Of a stretch of DNA of 35,951 bases, positions 6,920 through 32,767 are shown in pieces. The translations under genes were made by a program, and so were the position numbers. The notes beneath the pieces are model-generated. The model had not been told where the DNA came from and made no database searches. It saw only the letters and a program-made list of their open reading frames with translations. Source of the DNA: Sarea resinae (Eukaryota); contig JAPEUD010000120.1 in assembly GCA_026026165.1 (NCBI GenBank), positions 1-35,951 of the forward strand, given 5' to 3'. Positions within the stretch are counted from its first letter, which is position 1. Each line of letters opens with the position of its first letter.

Positions 6920-7129
6920 TTACTTCCGGTAGAGGTCCGTCTCGGCGGTGTCGGTGATTTTGCTCTCGAAATATAAAGATCCAGAAGCAGATAATCCAGC
7001 TGAATGCGAAGATGCACGAGGCCCACGTAAGAAGGTTTAGGTGTAATTCGACGACCATGATTGATCATGGTTGATGGATGGGTTGGAGGATGGGAGTAGG
7101 TTTTACGATCACCAATGCATTCACTTTAC

Positions 7130-7700
7130 ACCTAAGGTACCTAAGTAGCGAGCTAGGTCTAAGGGCTCCTTCCTAGATCTATCAAACAAGATCTCTATAA
7201 ATAATAGTAATAGATAGTTTAATATCTTCTCTAGAGATAATTAGATTGTAAGCTTAGATTGTAAGCTTAGCTATAGATATAGTTATAGATATATAAAATA
7301 TAATAATAAATATAATTACTATATAGATATTAATTCTACTTATTCTACTAAAATCTAGAAAATTTGCCTTAGACTTTCTTTTTATAGGTTGCCTATTTAA
7401 GCATGCTTAGTTATGCTATAATAGCGCTAGGTAATACCTAGCGCTATAAAAGAAGGTCTAAGTATACTAAGGTAAGTTTACTAGCTTAATAGTACTATAC
7501 TATATAGTAGAGCTTAATATCTATAGATATAGAAATAGCAGAGGCTATTAGAGTCACATGTGAAAGAGCATTGCTAGCATTTGCTGTCACTCTTATTATT
7601 GTATTACATAAGTAATAGATTACTATCGCTTGCTACCTTAGAGGTAGCTAGGCTATACCTTTAGATAAGGTAGTTAAGAATACTATTAGATGCTTCTAAG
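7130..7700. mobile_element. AT-rich, RIP-degraded repeat relic (origin not recognisable)
   Basis: Abrupt drop in GC with strong TpA enrichment (ctag, tata, ttag) and CpA/TpG depletion. Internal 13-bp tandem duplication TTAGATTGTAAGC at about 7241-7266. No ORF. Confidence 0.65.
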
Positions 7701-7701
7701 T

Positions 7702-8622
7702 CTACCAGAGTCTCCCGATCACGATATTACTAATTAGTGACCATCTTCCATAAGACGTCGTACGTAGATCTCTCCAGTCGTCCCTTCTCACTTCCCACTC
7801 ATATGACACTCGATCGGGGTCGACCCATTTGTCCCATTGGCTTGGAGGCCCGAGTCTTCCGAAAAAGCTCGGCTGCAAACATACACGGCCGTCTTCAGGC
7901 CGAACCTCCAGCTGTGCCCTACTGAAGTCACTGACGCGGTGATACAACTTGCAAGCGCCGCACAGCAGAAAGTAATCGCGCGCCGCCCATGTGGATCTTT
8001 CTGGGTGCCGGTTCACGAATCGTGCTTCAAGCTTGCAACCCAGGTGGAAGTAGAGCAGGCGCTCCTGCCCATGAGAACATATGCGCAGGTGGGCGGGCTT
8101 GCGCAGTTCAGCTAGAGGGAATTTTATCCAGGGATGCTCGCACATACAGAAAGCGCACGGCGATTTATGCGCGATGGTGCGATACCACAGGCCTAGCAGG
8201 CTCCTCGCTTCCCTCCTTCGGCGGACTATTTCTCTCTCGATATGATCAAATTTCAGGCACCATCGGATGCCATTCATCTGCCGCTGCCAGCCGCTATTGA
8301 GATAGAAATGCCTACTCGTCTGCCGAAAAGCGAGGATCGAGCTCGGAGAGAGGACATCGACGATATTAAATAAGATATCTGGCGGCAGCCTCATTAGTGA
8401 TGGTTCCTTCTGCCTTGGAGAGACACTGAAGGGCAGGCCGCCGTCGGAATGATTGAAATGAACGACCCTTCGCTTGAGGATGGCTATCATGAGTCCAAGA
8501 CATTTGAAGATGATGAGAAGCGCATATATCTTGAGGCTTGGCGTGCGATACATGGGCCGAAGAAGTCGGAAGCACCTGAATGGACTGCGACAATGGCCCA
8601 CTTCTCGATATGGGTCGCACAT
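7702..8622 (-). CDS. F-box domain protein with two tandem CCHC-type repeats (start uncertain: ATG at 8622, 8553 or 8490)
   Basis: F-box-like segment SLMRLPPDILFNIVDVLSPSSILAFRQTSRHF, followed by two C-x2-C-x3-H...RxC repeats. Confidence 0.75.
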   Translation of the reverse strand: MCDPYREVGHCRSPFRCFRLLRPMYRTPSLKIYALLIIFKCLGLMIAILKRRVVHFNHSDGGLPFSVSPRQKEPSLMRLPPDILFNIVDVLSPSSILAFRQTSRHFYLNSGWQRQMNGIRWCLKFDHIEREIVRRRREARSLLGLWYRTIAHKSPCAFCMCEHPWIKFPLAELRKPAHLRICSHGQERLLYFHLGCKLEARFVNRHPERSTWAARDYFLLCGACKLYHRVSDFSRAQLEVRPEDGRVCLQPSFFGRLGPPSQWDKWVDPDRVSYEWEVRRDDWRDLRTTSYGRWSLISNIVIGRLW

Positions 8623-9134
8623 CACACAACGTCAAGGCTCCTGCCTTGAAAGGATCCAAATGGCTATCGGCGGCCGTCGTTTGATAATAGGAAATGGCTG
8701 GCAAAGCTCGTCGTGATGAGACGGCGAGAGTCGGGCAAGAGGCATGGGCGTCACATAGAATTATAGCGAAGGGATCGGCAATCGCGAAGGCACAGGGGAG
8801 ACAGGCATAGCTTCAGGAGCAGAGACGAGCTTGATCTTTATTTCTTGCACTTTTCTTTTGTCTTTTTTTTGACACTTGTCCTAATCCCATTTTGATCTGT
8901 AAAGGGACTGACGGCGCTCAACCCGGTACCTCATACACTCTGTGCGAAGTAGTAGCACATGCAGGAATTGCTCGAGTATCAAGTACCTACCCAGCCAGGT
9001 CCCCACCCAGCCAGGTAGAAAACTTCCCAAACGCACTTTTACCTCCGGCAGTCGGTCCACAGTAATAATGAGATAGAAGAGGCAAGGTAAGTGAGGCAAG
9101 GTAAGTAAGTAAGAACCCTGTCAGATAGGTATCA

Positions 9135-15407: not shown

Positions 15408-18062
15408 TCACTTCAGGCAAAACGCCCGCGACCTCACATTCAAGCCCCGCCTCACATTCCTGACCAGTCTCGCCTCCAGATCCCGGACGGTCGCAACACC
15501 GAGCCGATTCCATGCCTCGAACTCTTCCTTGAGCAGCTGCTTGCGCGCTTCGACACGGGTGCCGAACCATAGCACCGTCTGCGATTCGGCGTCCCAGGCT
15601 GGCCATTCAGGGCCCGGGTTGCCATTGCGGATGAAGGCCCCCATCAAGGAACCCATGGCTGCCGAGGAGCGAGCTACCTGCTCGCGATCGATGCCGTCAA
15701 AGGTTGGCCACATGGCGAGATCTTCCGGTGTGTAGTTGCGGAACAGAAACGGCGTGTCGCCTGTGTGGACCGCGCGCAAAGAGCCTCCGAGGCCGGGGAG
15801 ATCGTAGGCGAACTGGAAGACGTGCACGGGGATGCCCTGGGCGCTGAGGTTGTTGGCGATGCAAAGACTGGAGAACTTGAAGAATTCCATGGACATCACG
15901 TCGGACAGAAGAAGGCCTGGTTCGTGGTCTGGGAAGAGGTCTTTGTAGGTATCAAACAGATCTCGCGTTTTGCTTGGGCCGAAAACTTGCGCTAGAACAG
16001 CTACCACGTCGGAGTCGGTGCCATGCTTGACGGTAGGTGATTCGCCCCGGAAGAATTGCCATTCGTCTTTGGCGAATCCGATGATCAGCTCGAAGTTCTC
16101 CTTGTCGAAACGCTGTTCCGATAGGGATTCCGCTGGTGCTGCAGAGATCCAGTCGCCATCGATGACTCCGCCTACGGGACGCCACGCCACATTGGCATCT
16201 GGGGGAAAGGTCCGACAGAGCATATTGTGCGTTGCCAATAGAAGCTCCGGCTTGATTGTCTTCAGCTTTTCAGGGTCGTCGATCTCTAGAATCTGCATGT
16301 ACTGCTGAGCGATGACCGTAGCCTCTTCCTTTTGTTGAGTGCACCAGAGGTTGAACGGTGACAGCGACTGAATGACGGCGCGTCTCACCATCCGCCGGGC
16401 ATCCGGATGTGTCAGGAGGTGGGAGACAGCCGTCGCGCCACATGATTCTCCCCCAACGGTGATATTTTCAGGATCTCCACCAAAATTCTCGATCTCATCG
16501 TAGACCCAACGCAGTGCTGCAATCTGGTCTTGAAGACCGAGGTTGATAGCCTCCGGGAATTTGTCGCTGATCAACCCAAAATGCACCCAGCCAAGGGCCC
16601 CAAGACGGTAATTTGGCCGCACGACGATGATGTTTTCCTCCCTCGCGAGATTGGCGCCTCTCTCCAGATGGAACGAGCCTGAACTGACGGCGTTGGCACC
16701 GCCATGATAATAGAGATATACTGGCAGCTTCTTGTTCGAGGAGATCTTAGGAGCCCAGATGTTAAGGTACAAACAGTCCTCGCTGATGTCGTCTTGGTTG
16801 TAAGTTCTCGTCGTGTACGATGGCCAAGACATGATACCGGGAAGCCCGGGATCCAGGGAATTCATCAGCTCCGCCACGTGACCGAGGCTATAATTGTTTA
16901 CTTGGAATGACGCTGGACCATCTGCCGTGGCCGGTCGAATTCCCGGCCAACCAATCGTACGTCTGGGCGCTTTGAAGCGAAGTTCGTCGACCGGAGGCTG
17001 GGCGTATGGGACACCTCTGAAGACGTAGACGTTATCTTCGAAAGAGCCCCGAAGAAGACCGGATGTTGTTGCAACAATATCTGATTCGGTATACAGTCTG
17101 GCTATGCGAGCTGCGGCCTGGGGAAAGAGGGCGAGAGCATTCTTGGAGCCTACATCCTCAATCTGAGAAGGTGTGAGTCCACGGTAGGTGAGGAGGGCCT
17201 TTAAATTCCGATCCAGGGTCGCATCCGACGAACAAGGGACACCGCTATCAGAACCATATAGAAGGTGGCTGGGAGACGTCACTGCTAGGGCCGGGTCCAG
17301 CGTGTGGCAGGTTGCGGTCGCAGCGGTGTCAAAATACAATCTCCTCACCTGATCCTCCATCTCTTCGGCTCTTATCTTATTTGGGTTTGCTACCCACGAC
17401 TCCGTGCCCAGGAGGCAAAGTCTCCCGCATAGAGCGGGAAACGCTCCACCGCAATGTGCGATGATCCACTTGATGTGAGGAAAACGGCGAAAGGCACCGG
17501 AGTATATCATGTTGGTCATGGTCCGTGCTGTCTCGAATGCAACATCAAGGCTAGCTGCTGGACGGCCGAAGGAACCCTCGCAGTACGCATTTGGGTGAAC
17601 GAAGACGACGGCGCGGCGGCGGTCCAACTCAGCCAAAGCTATGTCTTGAGATGGATCTCCAAGATAAATCCCATTGTAGCAGCAGGTAACGGCGAAGCCA
17701 TCAGGGTTCAATTCGTCGGAGGCTCGCCCAATCTCCGCCAGCATCGCGGCACCATCGTTCGTCGGAAGAGCTGCCAAAAAGCCGAATCTGGTTGGATGGT
17801 CAGAAACCAGCCGAGCGCCGTAGTTGTTTGACAGCCGGAGAGCTTCCAGATCTTGTGGGATGTTGCTCAGCATCTGCATGGCGATGCCGCGAGTGTCCAT
17901 GTATTCGAGCGTGTGCTGCAATGACCATTGATAGGGTTTGTCGAGGACCCAGCCTGCATCGCACATCCCTTGGTATCGTTGTGCCAGCTGTTCCGAATTC
18001 ATGGGAGGCGTGAAATGACAGTGGACATCCACCCAGCCCGACACGATGGGTTCGCGAGACAT
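15408..18062 (-). CDS. Fusion protein: amidohydrolase-2 (aromatic acid decarboxylase-like) + type-B carboxylesterase (about 884 aa from ATG 18062; ORF opens at 18143)
   Basis: N-half: DVHCHF, VFVHP, IAHCGG, LYFDTA, LLYGSD. C-half: FRGVPYAQPP, SEDCLYLNIW, YHGGA, NYRLGALG, GLQDQIAALRWV, GESCG, KDE, AVHTGD. No stop or intron between the halves. Confidence 0.9.
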   Translation of the reverse strand: MSREPIVSGWVDVHCHFTPPMNSEQLAQRYQGMCDAGWVLDKPYQWSLQHTLEYMDTRGIAMQMLSNIPQDLEALRLSNNYGARLVSDHPTRFGFLAALPTNDGAAMLAEIGRASDELNPDGFAVTCCYNGIYLGDPSQDIALAELDRRRAVVFVHPNAYCEGSFGRPAASLDVAFETARTMTNMIYSGAFRRFPHIKWIIAHCGGAFPALCGRLCLLGTESWVANPNKIRAEEMEDQVRRLYFDTAATATCHTLDPALAVTSPSHLLYGSDSGVPCSSDATLDRNLKALLTYRGLTPSQIEDVGSKNALALFPQAAARIARLYTESDIVATTSGLLRGSFEDNVYVFRGVPYAQPPVDELRFKAPRRTIGWPGIRPATADGPASFQVNNYSLGHVAELMNSLDPGLPGIMSWPSYTTRTYNQDDISEDCLYLNIWAPKISSNKKLPVYLYYHGGANAVSSGSFHLERGANLAREENIIVVRPNYRLGALGWVHFGLISDKFPEAINLGLQDQIAALRWVYDEIENFGGDPENITVGGESCGATAVSHLLTHPDARRMVRRAVIQSLSPFNLWCTQQKEEATVIAQQYMQILEIDDPEKLKTIKPELLLATHNMLCRTFPPDANVAWRPVGGVIDGDWISAAPAESLSEQRFDKENFELIIGFAKDEWQFFRGESPTVKHGTDSDVVAVLAQVFGPSKTRDLFDTYKDLFPDHEPGLLLSDVMSMEFFKFSSLCIANNLSAQGIPVHVFQFAYDLPGLGGSLRAVHTGDTPFLFRNYTPEDLAMWPTFDGIDREQVARSSAAMGSLMGAFIRNGNPGPEWPAWDAESQTVLWFGTRVEARKQLLKEEFEAWNRLGVATVRDLEARLVRNVRRGLNVRSRAFCLK

Positions 18063-19522
18063 GTTTGACGGCTTTGCTGTGTTGGTCTGGATGCGCTGGA
18101 CGGTGGTTTTCGTTTTCTTGGGGGTCGAGCAGTATGCCGACATTGCGGATATATATCATCCATCGTTTGGTTCAAACCACCATCGTCGGAGCCCTTGCGT
18201 CGGGGCCGGCGGGCTTAGGCAATAGTGAGAAAGACCCCGAGCGAGTCCCGCAGGATCCCAAAGTGCGAGATGTCCTGCCATTATTGCGAACAGCTATGGT
18301 CGTTTCAAGGTTGGTCGACTCTCAAAGTTGACTGCATGAAAGAGGAGAAGAATTGGGACGTGGATCATTGATGGGCTATGTGGGATGCGCGCATGATCAC
18401 CGCCTAGCTGCAGGCACCGTTCATGGATGAGAGACGGAGACACTAGCTTATCTCCACCTCGCCAACGGGGATCATCCGGTTGATATCTCCGGCTCGTATC
18501 TCCATGCTTGTTGAACTCGCCGTGAGGATTCCATTACATCCAAACCGCAAGCAAAGCGGCAAACGTGTTGATTGATCGGGCCGTTGAAGAGAGAAAGAAA
18601 TTGAATTGGCGGGTGATGCGGATGAATGCATCAATGACGGATCCAATGTGATGTGATGAGATCCTGCAGGGCATGCATCGGTGACGTAATTCTGTTGGGG
18701 GTGTTCAGAGCAATACTGTGTACGAAGTACATATCCGTACCTGGGACACTAACCGGTAGTCTACAGGTACCTTCCCGACTTGCGTCACTCCTGTGATCGA
18801 TGCAAGGCAGCGTCAATCAACAATGAAGCAATCATGGTCTGAATGTCAAGGATTGACATGATTTGAAGCCAGGGAACCAGAGCATAGGGGGCACCGTGGG
18901 ACAGTGAGGTGGTGAGCGGTGAGAGTCATAGAAGTACTTTAAGCGCAATATTATTGGACATAATAGTCCCTGATTCTTATCACTGATCATGATCATCGCG
19001 ATCCTTCCCTGCAGCCTTATCCAGTTGCTCACCGTCCAGCGCTCACCGCTCCACGTCCAGCGCGTGTGATGCTTGATGCCTTCTCGGGCAGTAGCACCTG
19101 ACGAATCACTGAAAAAGACAGTTTTGCCGTTATATATTTTATCAAACCCGAAGACGAAGATGGACTATAATCCGCACTGGCGGCCCGCCGGCTATGCCTA
19201 TTTGCCTACTATATAGCAGCGCTACTTACAGGCCAGGGCCAGTATAAAATGACACGCACTCGATGACTGCTTGAATTCCAAATAGCTCATTGTTCTATAT
19301 GACAGCTCCGTAATAAAGACAGTCGCCTCTTCGATTCACAACCTGTCTCCTCCGGTGATTGCTGCCAATGGTCCAGCGGTCCAGCGATCCGATCGTCTAG
19401 ATGGTCTGAATAGTCTAAGGGGCCAAGGGTCTGGACTGGACCATTCAGAAAATTGGCAGCATGGCCTCCATGATACCGATACCAATGATACCGATATACC
19501 GACACACTCTCACATGGGGAGA

Positions 19523-20314
19523 TCACATATTCCATCGCTCGGGGCCTTGGTCCTGTGCAGCGAGCATGCCCAGATACCACAGTGCGAGGGGGAGCGTCAG
19601 AATTGGTGCCTGGCCATCACCAACTGTCCTCCACGGAATCGGGTCGGAGAGGTCCAGATTCCCGTGGGTATCCTGCTTTCGAATGGCAACAAGCTCTCTA
19701 TCAGTCAAGATGAATCCATATCGCGAGTGATGCTGATTCATGTAGTAATTGACCTGGGATAATGCCTGACGAAATTCCTCTCGAGCAGTGTTGAGAGGGC
19801 TATTCTGGAGTCCCATGTGCCATTTCCAGGACGGCTTAATATCACCGGGTAGACGATTCGGCCCAGTGTTGTAGGGCCTCGTTGGGTCAAAGTAGGCCAG
19901 GTCCGGTCGGTAATTTTCAATGGTCGCCGCCATGTCCCCAACGTCGAACTCGAGTACGGTCAGACCGGCAATCTGGTGGACAGCTCGAGCGTGGGTAATT
20001 CCCGATCGTATCGCCCGTCGAATTCGATCTTTGAAATAGGTGTGAATGCGGGATGTCAGAGCGAGTTCGCCACCTACTGCTGATGGGGGCGAGGTCGGCA
20101 TTGGATTGTGTTCGATGAGGGCGCCGTGCAGGAGCGTGCCATATCTCTGAACGATCTCCTGGAGATTGAATGCGTCCCAATGACCGGGTTGGCGTATATC
20201 TTGGAAACTATACGATTTATTTGTAGTGTTCCTGCTCGGGTGTGCCGGGGGACTGATTGGAAGAGCCGGTGGTTGTTGTTGTAGATACGTCCAAAGGGTG
20301 ATGTTGTTCGCCAT
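19523..20314 (-). CDS. PD-(D/E)xK restriction-endonuclease-fold protein (263 aa)
   Basis: YRPDLAYF...LPGDIKPSWKW core, then the QxxxY helix (QALSQVNYYM) and RYGFILTD strand typical of REase-fold domains. The fold call is by motif only. Confidence 0.7.
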   Translation of the reverse strand: MANNITLWTYLQQQPPALPISPPAHPSRNTTNKSYSFQDIRQPGHWDAFNLQEIVQRYGTLLHGALIEHNPMPTSPPSAVGGELALTSRIHTYFKDRIRRAIRSGITHARAVHQIAGLTVLEFDVGDMAATIENYRPDLAYFDPTRPYNTGPNRLPGDIKPSWKWHMGLQNSPLNTAREEFRQALSQVNYYMNQHHSRYGFILTDRELVAIRKQDTHGNLDLSDPIPWRTVGDGQAPILTLPLALWYLGMLAAQDQGPERWNM

Positions 20315-21156
20315 ATCGGGAATGAAATCGTAGAGAAGAAAAGGATCTATAAGGTTCCGTTGATTGGAAAAGACGATTTTCTGTGTACAGGAAGGAGTTG
20401 CAATATAGAGAAGGGGAAAATAACACCATGCTTTGCCAGATGGCTGGTTTAAATACTCGTTTCCGTCACGCTCAACCTCTCGAGCACCAATACCTTGTTG
20501 TACACACGTCTTGCATTTACCTATACTTGAGATAGAGGCGGCAGACAGTGACTAGGCATTGGCCCAGTATTGTCCTCGGAAGAGGAAAACAGCTGATACT
20601 GTCTAGCATATCTCTTGTTAGGCGCTGCATTTCCCTTCATCCCCAACAGAAACAACGACTCGTCCCGCACAGAGACGTTGAGGGGGGCTGAGATAGTTTC
20701 AAGGGTTGTTTTACCAAGCGCTGTATTAGGCCAGCGCTTACTGAAGACTGGGAAGTGTCCTGTATCGAGTTCGTTTCAAAAAGAATGAATATCACATTCA
20801 AGGGAGGTGCTCTACTGTGGGGCTTTCCAGTGAATATACTCATAGTAAAGTGTAGTTCGCATGATTCGTGGCGGCTAAGTACGAAGTACTCCTAGCCCCA
20901 TCTGGCTGTTGTGAACCTTGGAAGCTTGGGTAAGCGAGTCTGATTGACGCCGACGTACAGATCCCAGGACATGGAATCTCTCCACTCTCATCTCTCACGA
21001 CTAGGTACCTCAACCACATCCGGCACATCTTGCAGTCTCCGAGAAAGCGCGTAAGGATTTGGAGAGTCGCCGCGCCTTGCCTTGGCCTGTTCCGACCTCT
21101 ACTTTTGACTGCGTTCTTCGCTCCATTCTCTATGCTCGGTTGCAAGCCAAATCGCG

Positions 21157-21964
21157 ATGGAGTTGACCGACATCAGACCTTCCGAGGTGAAGTTCCGGGG
21201 AGAATTCCATCGCTGCGAGTATTCGGCAATATTCCTCGCAGAAGTACGCGGTCTGGAGTGTGTGATGAAAGTGGTAGGTGCCTGATCCCCCCGATTTCCC
21301 GGCTTCAATTCAGATCATACAACGAGACCGTGGGAACTAAGTCAATTGACGGCGACGATAGTACCATGACTCCGGTCCCCCGCCTTCATTCGTGCGGAAA
21401 GATCGCGAGTACAATATCTACGTCTGCGAGATGAAGGCCTACCGCCGACTGAAGGAGCGTGGTATCTGTGAAAAGGGCATTGTGCCGCAGTTCTACGGTA
21501 GTATCGAGCAAATTCGGCCGAAACTTTGGCAACCAAACCTCGACATGTTTGCAGAGGACAAGTATCTTCCGAGTGCGATCCTGATAGAATACATTCCGGA
21601 CATGCGTATGTTGGATCTGGCCACCTACACGCCAAAGCGCATGGAGAAGTTCATCGACGGGCTCAAGGCGATCCATGAAGCGCTCGTCTTGCATCAGGAT
21701 GCTAAGCCCCATAACATGATGGTCGTGCCCGGTGACCCGGACCGAGTTCTTTGGATCGATTTCGACCGAGCGGAAACGTATGACGAGGATCGTATAACAC
21801 CCGAGCAGCGCGAGTGGATTGATCATGAAGCACGGACGGTGGAGGAGCTCGCCGTATATCTAGTATGTGGTATTGATCTTTTCGAGATTAGAAGCTTACG
21901 ACTTTCACAGCCACTTGACTGTGCCGAGGGACGCTATAACCAGACTATCTTGTGGTTTTTCTAA
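21157..21964 (+). CDS. Small protein-kinase-like protein (about 223 aa, 3 exons: 21157-21273, 21362-21862, 21911-21964)
   Basis: Exon 1 (not in the ORF track) MELTDIRPSEVKF...CVMKV carries the beta3 Lys. GTAGGT..TAG intron. CEMKAY (alphaC Glu), HQDAKPHN catalytic loop, WIDFD. In-frame 48-nt GTATGT..CAG intron. Confidence 0.82.
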
Positions 21965-23368
21965 GATCACTAGCATAATAGCTGACGGTAGTTTGGGGTC
22001 AAAGGCATTTACAGAGGGTGAATGATACGTTGGGTATCTACGAATACATCTGCCATTCACTAGAAGAAAGCATCTTCTTTTTCCTTCGGTTCTCTTTGTT
22101 GTTCGTCGTTCGTTGTTTGTCGCTCGTCGCCCTACGCCGCGCAACGAATACCATACGAGTAGGGTTTACAGTCTGGTGGGGGGGTTAGGCATGGTTGTGT
22201 GTTCATCGGCGGATAACACTCAAATGTAGACGTATGGAACGGTGGATTGATACCTGCTGGTATGCGCGCTGATAGGTATGCCATTAAAGCTAGTCAAAGA
22301 CTTCGAGAGGTGACAAGGTCAAGCCATGGATCTAAATAGCCATTCAATACCATCATCAAGACAGGTGAGACGCCTAGACAACTAAGCCTCTACACATCAT
22401 CTCCAATTACCAATATCGTGCGTTCAATCAAATAATCCTAGTAGAGATGAGAGCTGAGATCAGAGCCAAGATTGCCGCTGCTAGGATTTGAGAGGTCGAA
22501 AGCAAAGGAACTACCTTAGATCCCTACGTTTCGATACAGTGGGGCCGGATATACTCCTGACAAGAAAGCGCGTATCGCATCTCACCATAAGGAATGATCC
22601 GAATCAGTCGCAATCAACAAAGGTCAGGTCCTCGGGAAGAGATATCATTAGTCGACTGCCTTTTAGCGTACATATCCTTGTTGACTATAGCAGGCGCTTA
22701 TCGATACGGCCTGGAGCCTTTAGCCGCTATAGTGGAACCCCCCTCGGTATTCAGCCTTCAGCACGAACTTGTGTCGTCAACCCTCACGCGTTCATATGTG
22801 GGGAAAGATTGATCCCTGAATAGCTCTACGTACAAGATGCTTGCTACTGCTGTAGGCGCTTCTCTAACATAGCGTAATATTTAGTCCTTCGAGCTTTTCG
22901 AGACCCTTGAATTGAAAACGTATCCTGTTACTCTAATTGCAGAACCTGCTTGTAGGTATAGCAGTAATACAATGAAGCCACTACCTACTCCAAAAATCAG
23001 AAGCTTAGAGGAGACACGTGAGTCCAAGATAATGGAATTAACATTCGAGTAATAATGGAGTAATATATTGTATAAACAAGATATCTAGTTCGTGTCTGAC
23101 TTAAGGATTATCTTTCATTATCCTGATATAAGCCTAGAAACAGAAGGGCTTCTTGTTATCTTATCAGCCCTCGAGACAATTGACTAGAAGTTGACGCGAA
23201 AAGTCGCGTAAATCGCGAAGACTTTTGACCTGAAACTATAGGTGACGGACAAAATACATAGAAGCGGCTACAGCAGTACTCTAGAGAGTACAATCACTCG
23301 ACTGACCTGATCGATCAAAAGCCTCTCTCTACACACTATCGTTGTCTTCTTCCAGCGAACACACTGCG

Positions 23369-24469
23369 ATGGCGCGCGATAACTTTACTCCCGAGAACCT
23401 TATCGCGCGTCTAAGCTGGCGCCCAGACTATATCCAAGACTCGATGATCTCCATCTTTGGCGAAACCATCCAGTCAACCGAACTGCCCAGGACCTCGACG
23501 CCTCGTTCCCCTGGGCCTCTTGATGCCTTGCCTATAGAGCTGCAACATATCATCCTCAATTTGCTAGACTTTCAGAGCCTGTCACGCCTGACTCGCGTCT
23601 GTCGCCGAGGGAAACAGATGGTCGAGTCGTTGCCAGCGCATCGAGACTTGGTGAAGCACGCGTCCTCGGCACTGATCGCGCTTAGCCGGACGAGACTTCT
23701 TACCTGCCACTCGGCGGCTGCACTCTATGCAGCCTTACTGTCCGAGCAGTGCATCTGCTGCGGGAACTATGCGCCTTTCCTATTTCTCCCAACCTGCGAA
23801 CGATGCTGTTATAGGTGTCTCGAAAGAGATCGGTCTCTGCGAATGTTGACCGTTCGTATGGCCAAGGTTTACTTCGGTGTGTCCACCAAGCACCTAAACC
23901 AGATCCCGATCATGCTCAGCATTCCAGGGACATATTCCGTCGGTTTCACTGTCAGTCGCCGGAGGAGGCTCAGACTGGTCAGTCAGAAGCAAGTGAGGCA
24001 GTTGAGCCTTGCCGTGCACGGATCACAGGAAGCAATGGAAAGTTTCTTGACTTCGCAAAATGCTGGAAAACTCACGAGCTTTGAAATGTTTGACTTCCAG
24101 TGGCTCACGGATCCATCCTCCGGATCCCAATCTGGATGGTCCACCAACTACCCCAACGACCAGTTCTGTGGTATGGCTTCCACGTGTTTCCCATCCCTTC
24201 GGCTAGGGCACGGCCTGCAAAGGGGACTCTGGTGTGTGGGCTGTCGGCTCAATCTCGAGCATTATTCTCGGACAGGGATCTGGGACGCCGAGCTGCTGCC
24301 CTCGCTTCCCTTGAACGCCCATCCGACAAGGCCCTTGTTAGACCTGCAGCATCGGGCGAGATCCAAGTCTGAGTTACTCGAACACATTTGGGAGTGCAAG
24401 GGAGCAAGAGGTCTGCTACAACGTTTAGAACAGGAGGATAAGGAGTCTGGCAAGACAGCAGAGCTCTAA
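23369..24469 (+). CDS. F-box domain protein with Cys-rich putative zinc-binding regions (366 aa)
   Basis: F-box GPLDALPIELQHIILNLLDFQSLSRLTRV. Cys/His clusters CICCG...PTCERCCYRC, GLWCVGC and LLEHIWEC. Confidence 0.85.
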   Translation: MARDNFTPENLIARLSWRPDYIQDSMISIFGETIQSTELPRTSTPRSPGPLDALPIELQHIILNLLDFQSLSRLTRVCRRGKQMVESLPAHRDLVKHASSALIALSRTRLLTCHSAAALYAALLSEQCICCGNYAPFLFLPTCERCCYRCLERDRSLRMLTVRMAKVYFGVSTKHLNQIPIMLSIPGTYSVGFTVSRRRRLRLVSQKQVRQLSLAVHGSQEAMESFLTSQNAGKLTSFEMFDFQWLTDPSSGSQSGWSTNYPNDQFCGMASTCFPSLRLGHGLQRGLWCVGCRLNLEHYSRTGIWDAELLPSLPLNAHPTRPLLDLQHRARSKSELLEHIWECKGARGLLQRLEQEDKESGKTAEL

Positions 24470-25476: not shown

Positions 25477-25644
25477 TTTTGACACAGCACACGTTTTAGT
25501 TACTCGAGTTCCTCAACCTCTCCTCGATTAAAAGCTCTTCTATCACTCCAGTCTCAGTTCTGTGTGCATCTAGCCTCTCTTCATCTCTTCATCTACAACA
25601 AACTTTGCACTATAGCAATCCTCAAACCGCAGGACAAGACAAGA

Positions 25645-26478
25645 ATGGCCCCGATCGGTTCTTCCCTCGCGATACCCAAATCAGACCTGGAAGTCCTATC
25701 GCAGTATATCGACGATGAAACAGGTCGTTATCGTCTACGCGCCGGAAGAAGGGTTCACTATCTGACGATTTCAATTGATGTTTTTGACGATGACACAATG
25801 TGTCGCCCATATCTTCTAATACCACAACTCCCCGACATTCCTGACGGAGCTTGGACGAAGATGGAAGTCTACCGCCACGCTGATGGTTCACTACGCTCAA
25901 GCATCTCGTCGGAGCCCTTGGCAGCCGTGGAGATGCTATGGCATCCCCGCATCGTCGACGTGCTCTCCCTCAAACAAACCAAGCGCCACCGGTCAGGCGT
26001 CCATGAAGTGCTTTTCGACAGCAACCGACCCGCCGTTGCCAAGATCGCATGCTTTGACTTTCAGCTTCCTCAAATCGAGGATGAGACACACGTATATTCA
26101 ATCATCAGCCAGCATCAAGAAGCCGCGGTCCCTCCGGTCGCCCCAGCATTTTTGGCGCATCTGGCAGAGAACGGTCGAGTGATGGGCATGCTGCTGGAGA
26201 AGTTGGAGGGAGACTATGCGACGATTGATGATCTTCCTGCATGCGAAGAGGCTGTCCGCAGAGTCCATCGCATGGGCATGATCCACGGGGACGTGAACCG
26301 GTACAATTTTATTGTCGATCGGTCTAAGAAATGTGCCCGGCTTGTCGATTTCGAGCACGCTTCACCATACAATGAGACTGAAGCCCTTGCCGAGCTCCAG
26401 TCGCTGCCAGCCGAGCTGGTAGAGGCTACTGGACGAGGTGGAACCATTATATGGAAAGAGCCCCAGACAGGTACCTGA
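25645..26478 (+). CDS. Protein-kinase-like (APH/choline-kinase-type fold) protein (277 aa)
   Basis: AVAKIA (Lys), IEDETHVY (Glu), GMLLEKLEG hinge, IHGDVNRYNF catalytic loop, LVDFE. Confidence 0.82.
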   Translation: MAPIGSSLAIPKSDLEVLSQYIDDETGRYRLRAGRRVHYLTISIDVFDDDTMCRPYLLIPQLPDIPDGAWTKMEVYRHADGSLRSSISSEPLAAVEMLWHPRIVDVLSLKQTKRHRSGVHEVLFDSNRPAVAKIACFDFQLPQIEDETHVYSIISQHQEAAVPPVAPAFLAHLAENGRVMGMLLEKLEGDYATIDDLPACEEAVRRVHRMGMIHGDVNRYNFIVDRSKKCARLVDFEHASPYNETEALAELQSLPAELVEATGRGGTIIWKEPQTGT

Positions 26479-27044: not shown

Positions 27045-30000
27045 CTACCTGAGGACTGCTTTAGATAGTTTCGCACCTAAATCTAAAACCCCTGGCCTCC
27101 TCATGATACTGAAATGGTCGCCACTGACAACATCACAGGTAAATGTCGCTCCTGGCAAAAGAGCCTCCCAGCCATTAGTCTCATAGCTGGACCGCGGGTC
27201 CATCATCCAGTCCTCGGCCAAATTTCCATGTGCCGCCTTGCTCTCAAACTTACTCCGTGTTTTCTCCCCAACCGTCTCCCATACGCCATTCCGAGCCCAA
27301 AGCGCAGTCACCGACTTTGGTGCTTTGGACTCCGGAATGGCAATCGGCTGGTACTGCCTGAGGGCACTGAGTGAGCCTGCAAAATGGTCTCTCAAATCCT
27401 CTCGCACAGCCGTCTTGGAAGATGACGGTGCGCGCTCGTCTTTGAGGCCATTGAACGCGCCGATTGCCTCCAGCAAGTCGATCGTCTCTATGGGCAAAGG
27501 CGGTAAGGTCTTCGGGCACGGGGAATCGATCAGAACGAGGGAGTTGATCTCTTCACCGTGCAGCCGGATCAGCTGCGACGCTATCTCGAAGGCGTACGAG
27601 CCACCAATCGACCACCCGCCTAAGTTGTACGGCCCGTGTGGCTGCACGCGGCGGATCTCGCTCATATACATGGTCGCAACATCCTGTAGGGGAATTGTGA
27701 ACGAAGCGGGTGTCTGTAGAAACGGGCTGTTGAGACCGTACACCGCTCCAGGCGTATTCAGCGACGGCAGGCCCACGTAACCGCCAGCACTGCCGGATCC
27801 GTCAGGCAAGAGGAAAAAACACGGTTCCTGCGAACTGGATGATCCTTGTAGCAAGATTGAGTCTGCCATAGGATCGGGACTTGGCCTTGCCGTTTTCTGA
27901 GGAGCCTCGAAGGGTTGTTGCGGCGGTGATGCTTGCGAAGCTCCGCCGAGGACTCGATGAATGGCTGCAAATGTCGGGTTTTCTACCAAGAAACTAGACG
28001 GAAGAACCCTGCCCGTCTGTTCCTTGATAGCACCCAGGATGGAGACCGAGAGCAAGCTATCAGCTCCAATCTCGGTAAGCGGGGTGTCATCCTCAAGCTC
28101 CTCCGGAGAGACACCGATTTCACTCGCAATGATGTTCCTCAGCGTCTCCATGGATTGCGGATCCTCGGCATCCAAGCTGTGATCCAGTTCACTCGTCTGT
28201 TCACTCGTCTGGGTTTCTGCTGCACTTGTCTCATTGCTGGAAAGCTCTTCCCCGCTAGAAAGGTCATCGCTGCCGGAAAGGTCGTCGCTTCTGTCGGCAG
28301 CGGGTGAAGAGCTTGTGATTGTGGCCTTTATGATGCCTGAGAGGTACGACCGGAGCTGCTTCACAGAAAGGCAGTCAACAAACAGAGTGGCGGGAATGTC
28401 TATGCCTAATTGCTCGCTCAACTTCGCACTGATGCCGATAGTAAGAAGGCTGTCGACACCGAGATCCGAGAATTGAGTATCATCGCTAAGCTCGGATGGC
28501 TCTACACCAACCTCAGATGCGATGACGGTGAGGACGCTTTCAAAGTTGAAAGGGGCAGCTGCTTCCGCCACTTGCCTGGTATGTGGGCTCCGCTGCTGTC
28601 GATGTTGTCGATTCTTTGTCGGGTGCCGCTGAGGAGTTGTGGTGGCTACTGCATCGGCGGGTGTCGGAGGTAGCAAATGGTCGAGCATTGTGCGCTTGAT
28701 CCGCTGAAATCTTAGATCCTCACAGACAGCGACCACTTCATCGTCCTCAAAGAGGTAGACATCTCCAGCCATCATCCCACGAGTCTTTGTTTCCTGCATA
28801 CGGACATAGCTTTGGTAGATTTTCTCTGCCGAGAGCTGGCCGACTATCTTCATAGAATCCCAGCCATGGGCGATGTAGACGGAATCGGCAGGCGTTGTTT
28901 CGGCGCCGTTGAGTACAAATCCAGACAGATGGGCTAAGGTATCAATCCAGTACGGGCTGTGGGTGAACAAACCATCGGTGTCGACTGTCCGAAATTTAAC
29001 CTTTGCTGTTGCCTCTAGAAGGTGGCTGTCCATGTAGACCTCTTGCAGACCTTGATATTTATCGTCATAGTCAACCAAAGCTGCAAAAAGCTTGTAGACC
29101 ATGGGCCGGAGGATTTTGTGCGCAGAACCTCTCTCCGAAGCTCCAATGAGGTGATCTATCCTTGACTTGACAAGATACGCATTTCGTGCCCAATCCGACT
29201 TCCATTCTACGCCATCCCCAAAGGCTACAGTACAGTGCGCATGGTCTTGAGAGGCTGTACCATCCTGGGAGCTGAATTTGACTTCCACAGTATCGGATGA
29301 TCGCTTCCTGGTGGCGGCAACACGAATAATTTGACGAGTCGGTCCGGGTTGAATCAGCAGAGGCTTGTGCACTGCCATATCTTTGACGTCCATTGACATC
29401 TTTGACGGAGAGTCTGACAAATTTTGAATGTACGACGCGGCGGTAAAGGCCATATCCGCATACACTGAGCTTGGGCAAAGCCCAGCACCGTTGACAAGGT
29501 GCCCGCGAAGCGCTCTGTTCAGCTTAGTTTCAGAGGCATCTGTTTCAAAATTGACGTAGAGCCCTGTAGAATTACTGACTTCCGATACAATGCGATGGAG
29601 ACTAGTCGTAGAGAAAGATGGTACAGCATGATTGGCAGGGGCGGCGATGGGCAGATTTGATCCCTTTCTGATCGCCCAATCTCCTTCGTATTGTATCCAG
29701 TAGTTTTTCAGATCGAAAGAGTAAGTTGGTAGTTCGAGAAGGCGGAGAGCTTCCTCATATGGAGCGTGGTACTCGGACCAATCGATGTCGATGCCTGCAT
29801 TGTAGACCTCGGAGACTGAGCTAGCAATAACTTTCCAATCTCCATCGCTGCGCTTTAAAGAAGGGAGAAACACGCCTTCGCCGATTGTGGATCGAACCAT
29901 GCCTAAGCAAACAGGGTTTGGACCAGTCTCGATCCATAGTGTTCGACTATCAACCATCGAATTGGACCTTAGGGCTTGAAGCGCCTTAGTGAACTGAACA

Positions 30001-32767
30001 GGCTGGCGGATTTGACATTTGAGGTATTGAGCATCAATGACTCCACTCGTTGTAACGACCGACCCAAGCACAGTCGAGGCAACGGGTACTGACGGCTTTG
30101 AAAATTGGACTTTCTGAGCAAGGGTGGCAAAATTATCCAAGATTGAGTCCATTTGACCTGAATGAAATGCAAATTGCACTTCTAAGAGGGTCGCCTTTAT
30201 GTTCCGTGACTCAAGTAATCGTTGGAGATGCCGTATATCGTCAACGGGTCCATTTACCACGGTAGAAGTTGGTCCATTAATGCACGCTATTTCGCAGGCC
30301 GAGATATCAAATTCGTTGATCCAATGTTCAACCTTCTCCAAGCTTTCTTGTACCGCAAGCATTGAGTGAGATCCAGGTGTACATTTTGATTCCATCATTG
30401 TAGCTCGCTCGCCGACAAGATAGAGACAATCACTCAACGAGATTATTCCAGCAATACACAGAGCCGGATATTCCCCAAGGCTGTGGCCTATCACAGCGCT
30501 GGGAATTACTCCGAATGACTTCCATAGCGACGCCATCGCTAGCTCTATCGAAACCAGGGCCAGCTGAATTTGCACTACCGTGGCTTCAGATATGTCCATG
30601 TTCTTCTCCATGATGATTGGCAGAAAAGAAGGGAACCCGTGGTAGACGCCAAGTTTGTCACAATCTTGGACTGCCTCTCGAAAGCTTGTGTTGGTTTTGA
30701 ACAAATCAGATGCCATGGAGGTGTACTGCGATCCTTGTCCTGTGAATACAAACACTGTAGGCGGGGCGCCCGAAACCTTTGACCATCGCTCATCTGCTAT
30801 CACCCTCTCAAGGCTGGCAGTGAGTCCTTCAACAGAGGATACTGCATGAGATCGCCGCAAAACATGATGCATTCGACGTGCAGTGGTGGTGTAGGAAATG
30901 TCTTCTAGCCGTGCTTCAGGATGTTGCCTAAGGTACTCGAGTAAGTTTTGGGAGTTTTTCAAGATCGCATGCGTTGTCTTCCCCCAAGTTGCAATGACGT
31001 GATGGCTTCGGGGATCTGACCCCTTGATCTGCAGAATAGGGGGATCTTCTAGAAGCATACTCGTATTTCCGCCAGCAGCGTCGAAATTGTTGAGGAGTAT
31101 TCTGCGCTTTCCGTCCCCATTCGGACGCGGAAAGAACGGTGTTTTGCCATAGGATATATGAGTATTTAGCTGCTTTAGCGGTGGAAGCTTCTGATTGATG
31201 CGCCCTTTGATACCAATGTGCGGTGGGATCATGTTCTTTCGAAGCATCAAGATCGTTTTGATGATTGAGGTCACGCCACTGGCGGCTTCCGAATGACCCA
31301 AGTTTGGCTTTGATGTCCCAATATAGAGAGGATTTGTGGAGCTGCGATCACGCGCAAGAACGTTTGTCACGGACTTGGATTCGGTTGCGTCGCCAGCCTG
31401 GGTACCCGTTCCGTGCAGCTCGACATAGTCGATGTCATGAGCCTGGACTCCAGCTTTTTCTAGGACAGCGGTGAAAAGACGCTCTTGTGTTTCAGCATGG
31501 GGATGTGTTATTGATATGGCTTCAGCAGAGTGGTTGGTGACAGCTCCTCGCAAAACAGCCTGGATGTTATCTCGATCCGCGATTGCATCCTCAAGACGTT
31601 TCAGGACAACGACGCCTACAGCATCGCCGCGGACATAGCCGTCGGCATCATGATCAAAGGTCTTGCAACCCCCAGTCTTGGACAGAAAGCTACCTCGACT
31701 GAGTCCGGCAAACAGGTCTGAGGCCGTCAAGAGATTGACTCCTCCACCGACAGCGGTGTCGCACTCTCGAGCGAGCAATGCGGAACAAGCTAATTGTATG
31801 GAAGCAGCACTAGAGGAGCAAGCCGTGTCAAGGGAAAAGCTTGGTCCCTCCCAGCCAAAGTGATAATTGAGCCTGCCCGGACCAAAAGCTCGGATTCCAC
31901 CGGTAGCGAAATAGGTGTCGATGTTCTGGCTTGCATTTGCTCGCCAGTCATCAGTGGTTTGCCCGATGAACGAGCCGATCCTGCGAGTGTTGCTAGAAGG
32001 TGTGCGGTTAGGAGCATATCCCGCCATCTCAAGCGCCTCATAAGTCGTAAGCAGCATCATACGCTGTTGGGGATCGGTTTGCGACGCCTCACGTGGTGAC
32101 ATGTTGAAGAGTCGGGTGTCAAAATATCCCGGTCTGTCGATGAAAACTCCATACGGCGTCAAAGTAGAGTTCCTCAGCTTTCCAGAGGGATCGTAATGAG
32201 TATCAACATCGAATCGATCGGATCGGATCTTCTCATGGAGATCCCGGCCGTCCTCCAATACTCTCCAGAACTCCTCCAAAGTCTCACTCCCTGGGAGACG
32301 GGCAGCCATGCCCACAATGGCAATTGCTCCACCGTCTATACAAGTGCTTACTTTGGCCATTTCCTCGTCCTCGAGGATTCGAACATCCCGTGACTGCAAC
32401 ATCTGCTTGATAGTCTTCACGAAATTCACCGATCCAAATGAGAGAATATTGACTGATGTGCCCAGGACGTTCGACAATCCATTGACAATTGCTTCAAATA
32501 GAACAGGCTCTTGCAAGATGTCTTGCACAATTTCAGCAAGTAGCTGGGAAAGCACTGTGCCCGAGTATAGCTCTCCTGAGCTTGATGAAATAATCAGCGG
32601 ATGCTGTAGTGGCCTTTCAAGATGTGCGACGCTCATACAGCCGAGAAGTCGGCTCAGAGATACCGGCATCAGGTGCCTTCCATGAAAAGCTGCTGAGATG
32701 GGCAGCGGGATTCTCTTGCAATGGTAGAATAGCTCCGTGGTTGTGAACAGTTTGGTGGTGGTGGTAG
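27045..32767 (-). CDS. Non-reducing iterative type I polyketide synthase, (partial SAT)-KS-AT-PT-ACP-ACP-TE, 5'-interrupted by an LTR retrotransposon
   Basis: KS: DTACSSS, HGTGTQAGD, NLGHSEAASG. AT: GHSLGEY, FAFHS. PT: GHLVNG, YWID. ACPs: LGVDSLL, IGADSLL. TE: LPDGSGS, GWSIGG, IDSPCP, GDHFS. The frame continues upstream of ATG 32669 as SAT-like TTTTKLF...LPISAAFHGRHL up to 32767. Confidence 0.93.

Follow-up and report, generated by a model that had tools for sequence, protein, structure and literature searches.

What two neighbouring genes of opposite orientation do together, when one is predicted to encode a nuclease and the other a minimal kinase, is the question raised by a contig of Sarea resinae. 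The window examined here is the entire 35,951-bp contig, which belongs to an ascomycete metagenome-assembled genome (MAG) of the lineage Sareomycetes; near its middle, gene A (the nuclease) lies on the minus strand and gene B (the kinase) on the plus strand, transcribed away from each other. An earlier note made from this DNA had proposed that the two are a split, Spok-like toxin/antidote module in which the kinase neutralises the nuclease. The analysis shows that nuclease and kinase make up a real two-gene unit, widely conserved in ascomycetes and found head-to-head, in tandem or fused; the most economical mechanism for it would be that of the Spok drivers, the nuclease acting as the poison and the kinase as its antidote. 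The two proteins, their linkage in other genomes and their likeness to known systems are considered in turn, followed by the mechanism and its competitors.

Gene A (P0001) extends from 19,523 to 20,314 on the minus strand, stop codon included, and is a single ATG-to-stop open reading frame (ORF) of 263 amino acids (aa) encoding a stand-alone protein with a PD-(D/E)xK nuclease fold. The motifs that the earlier note had read in it, RPD...GDIK...QVNYY, were recovered in the expected places: the catalytic motif, P137-D138 with G157-D158-I-K160, is encoded at 19,835 to 19,906 on the same strand and was assigned from the homologue alignment and the predicted secondary structure, and the QxxxY motif, Q187-V-N-Y-Y191 (19,742 to 19,756), lies on a helix (residues 175-195) that follows the catalytic strand. 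The AlphaFold2 model, built from an alignment of 34 homologues, is one domain (predicted local distance difference test, pLDDT, 94.3; predicted template-modelling score, pTM, 0.92), in which P137-D138 precedes the second core strand (139-142) and D158-I-K160 falls within the third (157-159). The protein has the alpha-beta-beta-beta-alpha-beta core of the PD-(D/E)xK superfamily, and the restriction-endonuclease (REase) fold on which the earlier proposal depended is therefore present in the model, with REase-fold proteins as its neighbours. Among the relatives of at least 230 aa, D138 is kept in 161 of 176, an aspartate or glutamate at position 158 in 145 of 176 and K160 in 158 of 176, and the QxxxY residues are similarly retained (Q187 in 153 of 176, Y191 in 161 of 176). 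Because the motif residues occupy the positions that such a fold demands and are conserved among relatives, gene A probably encodes a PD-(D/E)xK enzyme that is catalytically competent, as judged from the model.

The top structural neighbours of gene A in an exhaustive structural comparison are restriction and defence enzymes, namely BpuSI, DrdV, HsdR, NucC, McrBC and Cas4. Identity to the N-terminal nuclease domains of restriction enzymes of type IIG (BpuSI 3s1s, DrdV 7lo5) and type I (HsdR 3h1t) and to the DUF820/Uma2-type nucleases is 8-13%, and gene A, a stand-alone eukaryotic gene, has neither a methylase nor a motor partner. By sequence, no Pfam family matched the protein at E<=1, no PADLOC or NCBIfam model matched it, and the PDB held nothing credible (best E 0.064). 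Pfam applied to 34 members of the nuclease family returned noise only, including FTA4 in 4 of 34 (best E 0.028, about 40 residues). Several nuclease homologues bear the UniRef label "Fungal-type protein kinase domain-containing protein"; this label was not reproduced, the 11 members so named being free of Pfam matches at E<=10, and in the ESM Atlas a FunK1 (PF17667) cluster aligns to the nuclease at a template-modelling score (TM) of 0.57. In the Atlas the nuclease lies nearest (TM 0.81-0.83) to unnamed Ascomycota clusters of 545-653 aa, 300-400 residues longer and auto-labelled "putative sialidase".

Gene B, as read from the sequence, occupies 21,157 to 21,964 on the plus strand in three exons and encodes a minimal kinase of 223 aa. 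Exon 1 (21,157 to 21,273; 39 aa, ending in VMKV) carries the N-lobe strands and the ATP-anchoring lysine K38 (21,268 to 21,270), and matches positions 1-39 of the kinase-family profile with an E of 1.1e-8. Exon 2 (21,362 to 21,862; 167 aa), interpreted from the sequence and the homologue alignment, contributes the alpha-C glutamate (in CEMKAY), the hinge, the catalytic loop HQDAKPHN (21,692 to 21,715) and the DFD motif (21,758 to 21,766), and exon 3 (21,911 to 21,964) adds 17 aa and the stop, its tail DxxxGxxxxxxxxY aligning with the homologues. The two introns, of 88 nt (21,274 to 21,361; GTAGGT...TAG) and 48 nt (21,863 to 21,910; GTATGT...CACAG), are spliced in the same way in the public model P0122 (Sarea resinae MAG, M1819_001080), a protein of 187 aa that starts at the methionine of VMKV and omits 36 N-terminal residues, the first two N-lobe strands among them. 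Judged on sequence, the 223-aa gene model is better than P0122, its start being preferred because of the profile match of exon 1 and because full-length homologues begin alike. The earlier description of a divergent 223-aa kinase retaining the lysine, the glutamate, HxDxKxxN and DFD is thus borne out by a three-exon model, and the distance of 842 bp given there between the two ATGs (at 20,314 and 21,157) is correct.

The model of P0123, a full-length homologue 57% identical to the gene B protein, is a bilobal kinase (pLDDT 91.5) that terminates shortly past the DFD motif. Among the kinase relatives, H114 and D116 are each kept in 47 of 48, N121 in 46, D136 in all 48 and D138 in 47; the lysine of the catalytic loop, classically HRDxK, is variable (K in 18 of 48, Y in 19 of 48). 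The beta-3 lysine, the alpha-C glutamate, the catalytic aspartate and asparagine and the metal-binding aspartate are thus all found in a bilobal fold, as in other members of the kinase-like superfamily. Scores against curated families were low: Pfam Pkinase gave 24.0 bits against a cut-off of 31.7 (E 3.1e-5, in exon 2), Kdo 15.0 against 21.3 and NCBIfam Bud32 21.4 against 125, with a weaker match to APH, and PADLOC and NCBIfam yielded generic catalytic-core matches only. Sequence comparison accordingly places gene B in the kinase superfamily but outside any curated family (Pfam Pkinase, Kdo and RIO1 and NCBIfam Bud32 all scoring below their cut-offs), and the protein represents a Kdo/RIO/Bud32-type minimal kinase without a substrate-binding lobe. 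Its structure resembles the RIO kinases, yet its scores against them are tied with those against ordinary protein kinases; the kinases of ribosome biogenesis and of KEOPS are housekeeping enzymes encoded by single-copy genes. Its Atlas neighbours are Kdo, APH, RIO and FTA2-type clusters. As a separate observation, one kinase relative, P0149, lies barely above the Pfam cut-off for FTA2, a subunit of the kinetochore Sim4 complex, in its N-lobe (31.5 against 30.2 bits), and the nuclease relatives P0050, P0074 and P0098 show sub-threshold FTA4 matches (E 0.03-0.1, about 40 residues) that are probably noise. That Sim4-complex names should appear for both families, FTA2 on the kinase side (P0149 and P0147) and FTA4 on the nuclease side, is an odd coincidence.

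Other genomes indicate that the two genes belong together. Metagenome contigs were scanned with the nuclease alignment only, blind to the kinase, and the loci found were then searched with kinase proteins and profiles. The scan gave 29 loci in 16 distinct groups, and a kinase of the same family lies within about 2 kb in six of the six independent groups whose nuclease is near full length and is flanked by sequence on both sides. Three of these groups (L003, L004-L008 and L009-L010) are head-to-head; two (L002, and L014, the gene of which recurs as L016 on a short contig) are tandem, the nuclease preceding the kinase; and L017/L018 holds three pairs on one 17.5-kb contig, one head-to-head and two tandem, together with extra kinase ORFs. 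Head-to-head co-occurrence of homologues, which the earlier note had proposed to survey, is seen in three groups and in one pair of the sixth, the others being tandem. Left out of this count were L001, L011 and L012, in which a full or nearly full nuclease lies on a short contig; no kinase was found in seven groups with only partial nuclease matches of 46-126 residues (L013, L015, L019, L020, L021-23, L024 and L025-29). In a six-frame comparison of the window with these loci the pair is the sole shared content, the flanks being unrelated ordinary genes everywhere, and the linkage holds at about 33-56% identity and over different arrangements. The three nuclease-like ORFs of the L017/L018 array (L018:3600-15350) span 381-422 codons from stop to stop with the domain in the C-terminal half, and each has one or two kinase-like ORFs as partners; the array belongs to a divergent subfamily whose identity to the window proteins is about 33-36%.

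Named genomes contribute further cases. In Rasamsonia emersonii the nuclease T310_6486 adjoins the kinase T310_6487, with consecutive tags and accessions, and in a second assembly of the same species VTN96DRAFT_6842 and VTN96DRAFT_6843 are adjacent on a 5963-bp contig; P0003 and P0124, each from a single 3643-bp contig, are probably one more linked case. By a rough estimate, assuming a handful of kinase copies in a genome of about 35 Mb, the chance of a kinase neighbour within 2-3 kb is well under 1%. The adjacency of nuclease and kinase exceeds chance, because it recurs in all six judgeable metagenome loci, in Rasamsonia emersonii and probably on the 3643-bp contig. Distances among nucleases and among kinases are correlated over 11 pairs (Mantel test, r 0.765, with none of 5000 permutations as high), a result that shared species history alone could yield.

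A search of all retrieved proteins with the kinase profile also revealed fused forms. P0198, a protein of 497 aa from one JGI contig, carries a nuclease at residues 2-256 and a kinase at 295-478 (kinase-profile E 1.4e-45), and P0175 with its two cluster mates, 361 aa in length and from three ENA contigs, has the nuclease joined in one frame, by a linker of 35 residues, to kinase exon 1 and an unspliced intron. Pfam found no family in 17 longer relatives and so overlooked the kinase domain in P0198 that the family profile had caught. In the Atlas, a cluster of proteins of 472 aa, 17% of them with Pkinase, aligns to the nuclease at a TM of 0.74.

The evolutionary behaviour of the family bears on its nature. 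The nuclease profile retrieves 1375 clusters (at 50% identity) with E<=1e-3 and 809 with E<=1e-10. In a quick maximum-likelihood tree of 50 named sequences, Eurotiales and Onygenales are intermixed within each of several paralogue clades; Lipomyces, of the Saccharomycotina, sits inside a set of Paecilomyces sequences, Xylona and Xylogone fall inside Eurotiales groups, and the order label changes 11 times against a minimum of 6, with branch support from the Shimodaira-Hasegawa-like approximate likelihood-ratio test (SH-aLRT) only. Some copies are decaying: in the head-to-head locus L004-8 the nuclease carries a stop and a frameshift, and in the kinase a stop is joined by loss of W-I-D from the WIDFD motif; in L014 both genes contain stops, and relic fragments are present at some metagenome loci. 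A composition suggestive of repeat-induced point mutation (RIP) was not seen in the pairs. Such a large multi-clade family, with relics and joint decay, behaves in the manner typical of conflict genes. Two side observations belong here. The pseudogene pair at L004:8600-10850 recurs in five metagenome records (L004-L008), with a Ty3-type retrotransposon about 5 kb downstream (L006:15320-20247). P0326, in the P0006 cluster, is a Paecilomyces-type nuclease fragment of 112 aa deposited as a partial protein of Bacillus mycoides on a 337-bp contig, and is most likely fungal contamination.

Among described systems, the Spok proteins are the closest in several respects. In the Atlas structure search the gene A nuclease aligns over 253 residues, at a TM of 0.78, to a cluster annotated 100% as PF27653, SPOK2_N (Spore killer 2 N-terminal domain); the TM is 0.78 to a 502-aa SPOK2_N cluster and 0.76 to a 772-aa SPOK2_N cluster that carries Kdo on 12% of its members, and in the sequence-feature search a SPOK2_N cluster scores 0.91. 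The predicted fold of gene A as a whole thus resembles the N-terminal, nuclease region of Spok proteins. Spok likewise has a PD-(D/E)xK nuclease with a QxxxY motif, described for SPOK3 and HsdR in PMC6660238, and SPOK3 shares with gene A the HsdR of V. vulnificus (3h1t) as a structural or profile neighbour; the distance from PD to K in SPOK3 (positions 219-240) is similar to the 22-23 residues of gene A, whereas the spacing from K to QxxxY is 54 residues against 27. The HsdR neighbour, the QxxxY motif and the PD-to-K spacing are independent pointers toward a likeness with Spok. On the kinase side, Spok has a Kdo-like kinase with an intact catalytic aspartate, and gene B is alike, a resemblance of class and not of specific kinship; the residue pattern of the gene B family matches the "eukaryotic-like kinase" pattern that Vogan et al. 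assign to the Spok kinase (PMC6660238). Spok is also multi-copy with a patchy phylogeny, as is the nuclease/kinase family, and its order of domains, nuclease then kinase, is that of the fused P0198 and P0175. In contrast to Spok, which unites both activities in one polypeptide, the window holds two genes on opposite strands.

A second parallel is offered by the Crinkler REase-kinase C-termini, such as that of Phytophthora infestans CRN8, which follow the same two-domain logic as the window pair. A 566-aa Mucoromycota cluster annotated with Crinkler and Pkinase aligns to the nuclease at a TM of 0.71 and to the kinase at 0.64. Crinklers differ in having an N-terminal Crinkler/Ubl header, for which gene A has no room, all 263 residues being one nuclease domain; in bearing a secretion or translocation signal, which the window proteins lack; and in coupling in one protein the domains that the window keeps as separate genes. 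The likeness to Spok and Crinkler proteins that the earlier note had drawn finds structural support for the nuclease, which lies beside SPOK2_N and Crinkler REase-kinase clusters in the Atlas; the kinase shows no specific kinship to the Spok kinase apart from its Kdo/RIO-type class.

In the mechanism that most economically accounts for these data, to which, reasoning by analogy, we give slightly better than an even chance, the pair works as Spok does and is its unfused counterpart. Both genes would be expressed from the short divergent spacer; the nuclease would damage DNA, potentially with lethal effect, as the parallel with Spok and Crinkler REase-kinase toxins suggests; and the kinase would render it harmless in cells that carry the locus, by phosphorylating the nuclease itself, its target or a small-molecule product. 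Candidate sites on the nuclease are S162 and T204, both invariant, and Y191, which is nearly so. The pair would then act as a two-gene toxin/antidote element, whether in spore killing, in post-segregational killing or in conflict or allorecognition. For Spok itself, toxicity has been mapped to the nuclease and resistance to the kinase, the latter also in trans (PMC6660238 and PMC12693581), and SPOK1 is described in PMC9972908 as killing by targeting DNA. A wider form of the proposal, which we regard as tentative and rather doubtful, would make the window pair part of a large, undescribed Ascomycota family of toxin-antidote elements in which nuclease and kinase are two genes; the family would be a sister or ancestor, in unfused form, of the Spok drivers, with spore killers or post-segregational killers in Aspergillus, Penicillium, Paecilomyces, Talaromyces, Onygenales and allies, with kinases acting in trans and with orphan kinases serving as resistance genes.

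Several results weigh against a Spok-like poison and antidote. The likeness to Spok rests on a single source where the Atlas is concerned, its structure and feature searches counting as one, and no SPOK2_N cluster is listed among the Atlas neighbours of the gene B kinase. An N-terminal coiled coil and a Cys/His cluster before the kinase, defined as Spok features in PMC6660238, have no counterpart here: the gene A model has no long N-terminal helix, and the 39 residues ahead of the gene B kinase core contain two cysteines and no C-x3-C. With two polypeptides and neither coiled coil nor Cys cluster, the window pair is outside the Spok family in the strict sense. The kinase half of the fused P0198 has lost the lysine and the DFD aspartates, and a word-based search for longer, fused relatives found none, which is weak evidence. 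Linkage, which the earlier note had made a requirement, stands in the six metagenome loci and in Rasamsonia emersonii and fails among the homologues retrieved from Xylona heveae, Lipomyces kononenkoae, Paecilomyces variotii DTO271G3, Aspergillus rambellii and A. ochraceoroseus, which lie on different contigs and have non-adjacent tags and accessions. Nuclease and kinase homologues of A. sclerotioniger and Emmonsiellopsis sp. PD_5 are on contigs of different size, a nuclease found in at least ten P. variotii strains has no partner among the kinases retrieved, and Histoplasma and Paracoccidioides gave kinases with no nuclease among the homologues listed. Part of the family may therefore be unlinked or solitary; the list of 88 candidate kinases behind these comparisons is incomplete, the partner kinases of L003 and L009-10, found by tblastn, not being among them. 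In the same sense, no k-mer is common to five head-to-head spacers, as is also the case for shuffled sequences, repeats flanking the window pair are short matches at chance level, and no transposase, Starship captain, HET or NLR genes flank it; the pair sits among ordinary or housekeeping genes, outside any obvious mobile element. A predicted nuclease-kinase complex scored 0.56 against 0.52 for a control with the nuclease replaced, so that the score does not discriminate.

The competitor that survives best, unlikely in our estimation and still deserving of weight, is that the pair serves its host as a conflict or regulated-cell-death module directed at mycoviruses, invading DNA or non-self hyphae, the kinase serving as a sensor, or as a switch for activating or licensing the nuclease, and nothing in the pair being selfish. 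The restriction and defence enzymes that neighbour gene A structurally favour it, as do the position among ordinary genes and not in mobile elements and the multi-copy, patchy distribution, which is often a feature of immune families too; in Crinkler proteins, moreover, the kinase has been proposed to regulate the REase (Zhang et al. 2016, as summarised in PMC5289972). Against this, neither small protein has a sensor or recognition domain, the locus has no NLR or HET partners, and the joint decay in L004-8 and L014 fits dispensable elements equally well.

A non-toxic role, in which the two enzymes act in sequence on shared DNA or RNA ends or on one metabolite as an ordinary nucleic-acid processing or repair pair, is improbable. 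Both enzymes look active by their residues, the kinase is of a small-molecule or atypical type (matches to Kdo, APH and Bud32; RIO-like structure), and the neighbours in the window are housekeeping genes, all of which such a pathway would suit; it is at odds with the patchy distribution, the clades that mix orders and the Lipomyces sequences inside a Paecilomyces clade, with the three-pair array on one contig, the pseudogenised pairs and the relic fragments, and with the lack of synteny beyond the pair. That the nuclease fold is a non-catalytic scaffold and the kinase independent of it, the adjacency reflecting co-regulation or fused-gene ancestry only, is very improbable, given that the window nuclease and most of its relatives keep the catalytic residues (every one of them in the window protein) and that linkage across three arrangements at about 33-56% identity is hard to explain in the absence of a functional tie.

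The surroundings of the pair within the window are as follows. The intergenic region between the divergent ATGs (20,315 to 21,156; 842 bp) is presumed to be a bidirectional promoter, and the head-to-head loci L003, L004 and L009 have matching spacers of about 0.5-0.55 kb. No second copy of either gene is present in the window. An unrelated kinase-like ORF of 304 aa at 25,564 to 26,478 (plus strand) has weak APH and Pkinase matches; in the search for second copies, where its span was 25,483 to 26,475, it matches the small-kinase profile at the catalytic loop only (E 0.002). F-box-like ORFs lie at 7,702 to 8,625 (minus strand) and at 23,342 to 24,469 (plus strand), the second directly downstream of the kinase gene, and no F-box-like counterpart was seen beside the pair in the other loci. 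A non-reducing-type polyketide synthase ORF of 1874 aa with the architecture KS-AT-DH/PT-ACP-TE is found at 27,045 to 32,669 (minus strand); an amidohydrolase-carboxylesterase fusion ORF of 911 aa (15,408 to 18,143) and a flavin adenine dinucleotide (FAD)-monooxygenase ORF (823 to 2,025) may or may not go with it. On a contig of about 50% GC, two segments are outliers, 1,001 to 2,000 at 65.6% (the FAD-binding ORF) and 7,001 to 8,000 at 38.8%.

In the literature searched, no description was found of a split nuclease-kinase pair of this sort, nor, for the industrial and clinical moulds in which members of the family occur, of any spore killer or toxin-antidote gene of the kind. The antidote mechanism of Spok is hard to study because poison and antidote domains share one protein; a two-gene version splits the poison from the antidote, and the antidote mechanism thereby becomes directly testable, with each protein separately. 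If the pairs prove selfish, presence/absence variation, hybrid sterility or strain incompatibility in industrial and clinical moulds could be due to them, and nuclease-kinase pairs could provide compact parts for synthetic gene-drive or containment systems. Should the pair prove to be a defence or repair module instead, it would still represent a new conserved REase-kinase partnership in fungi.

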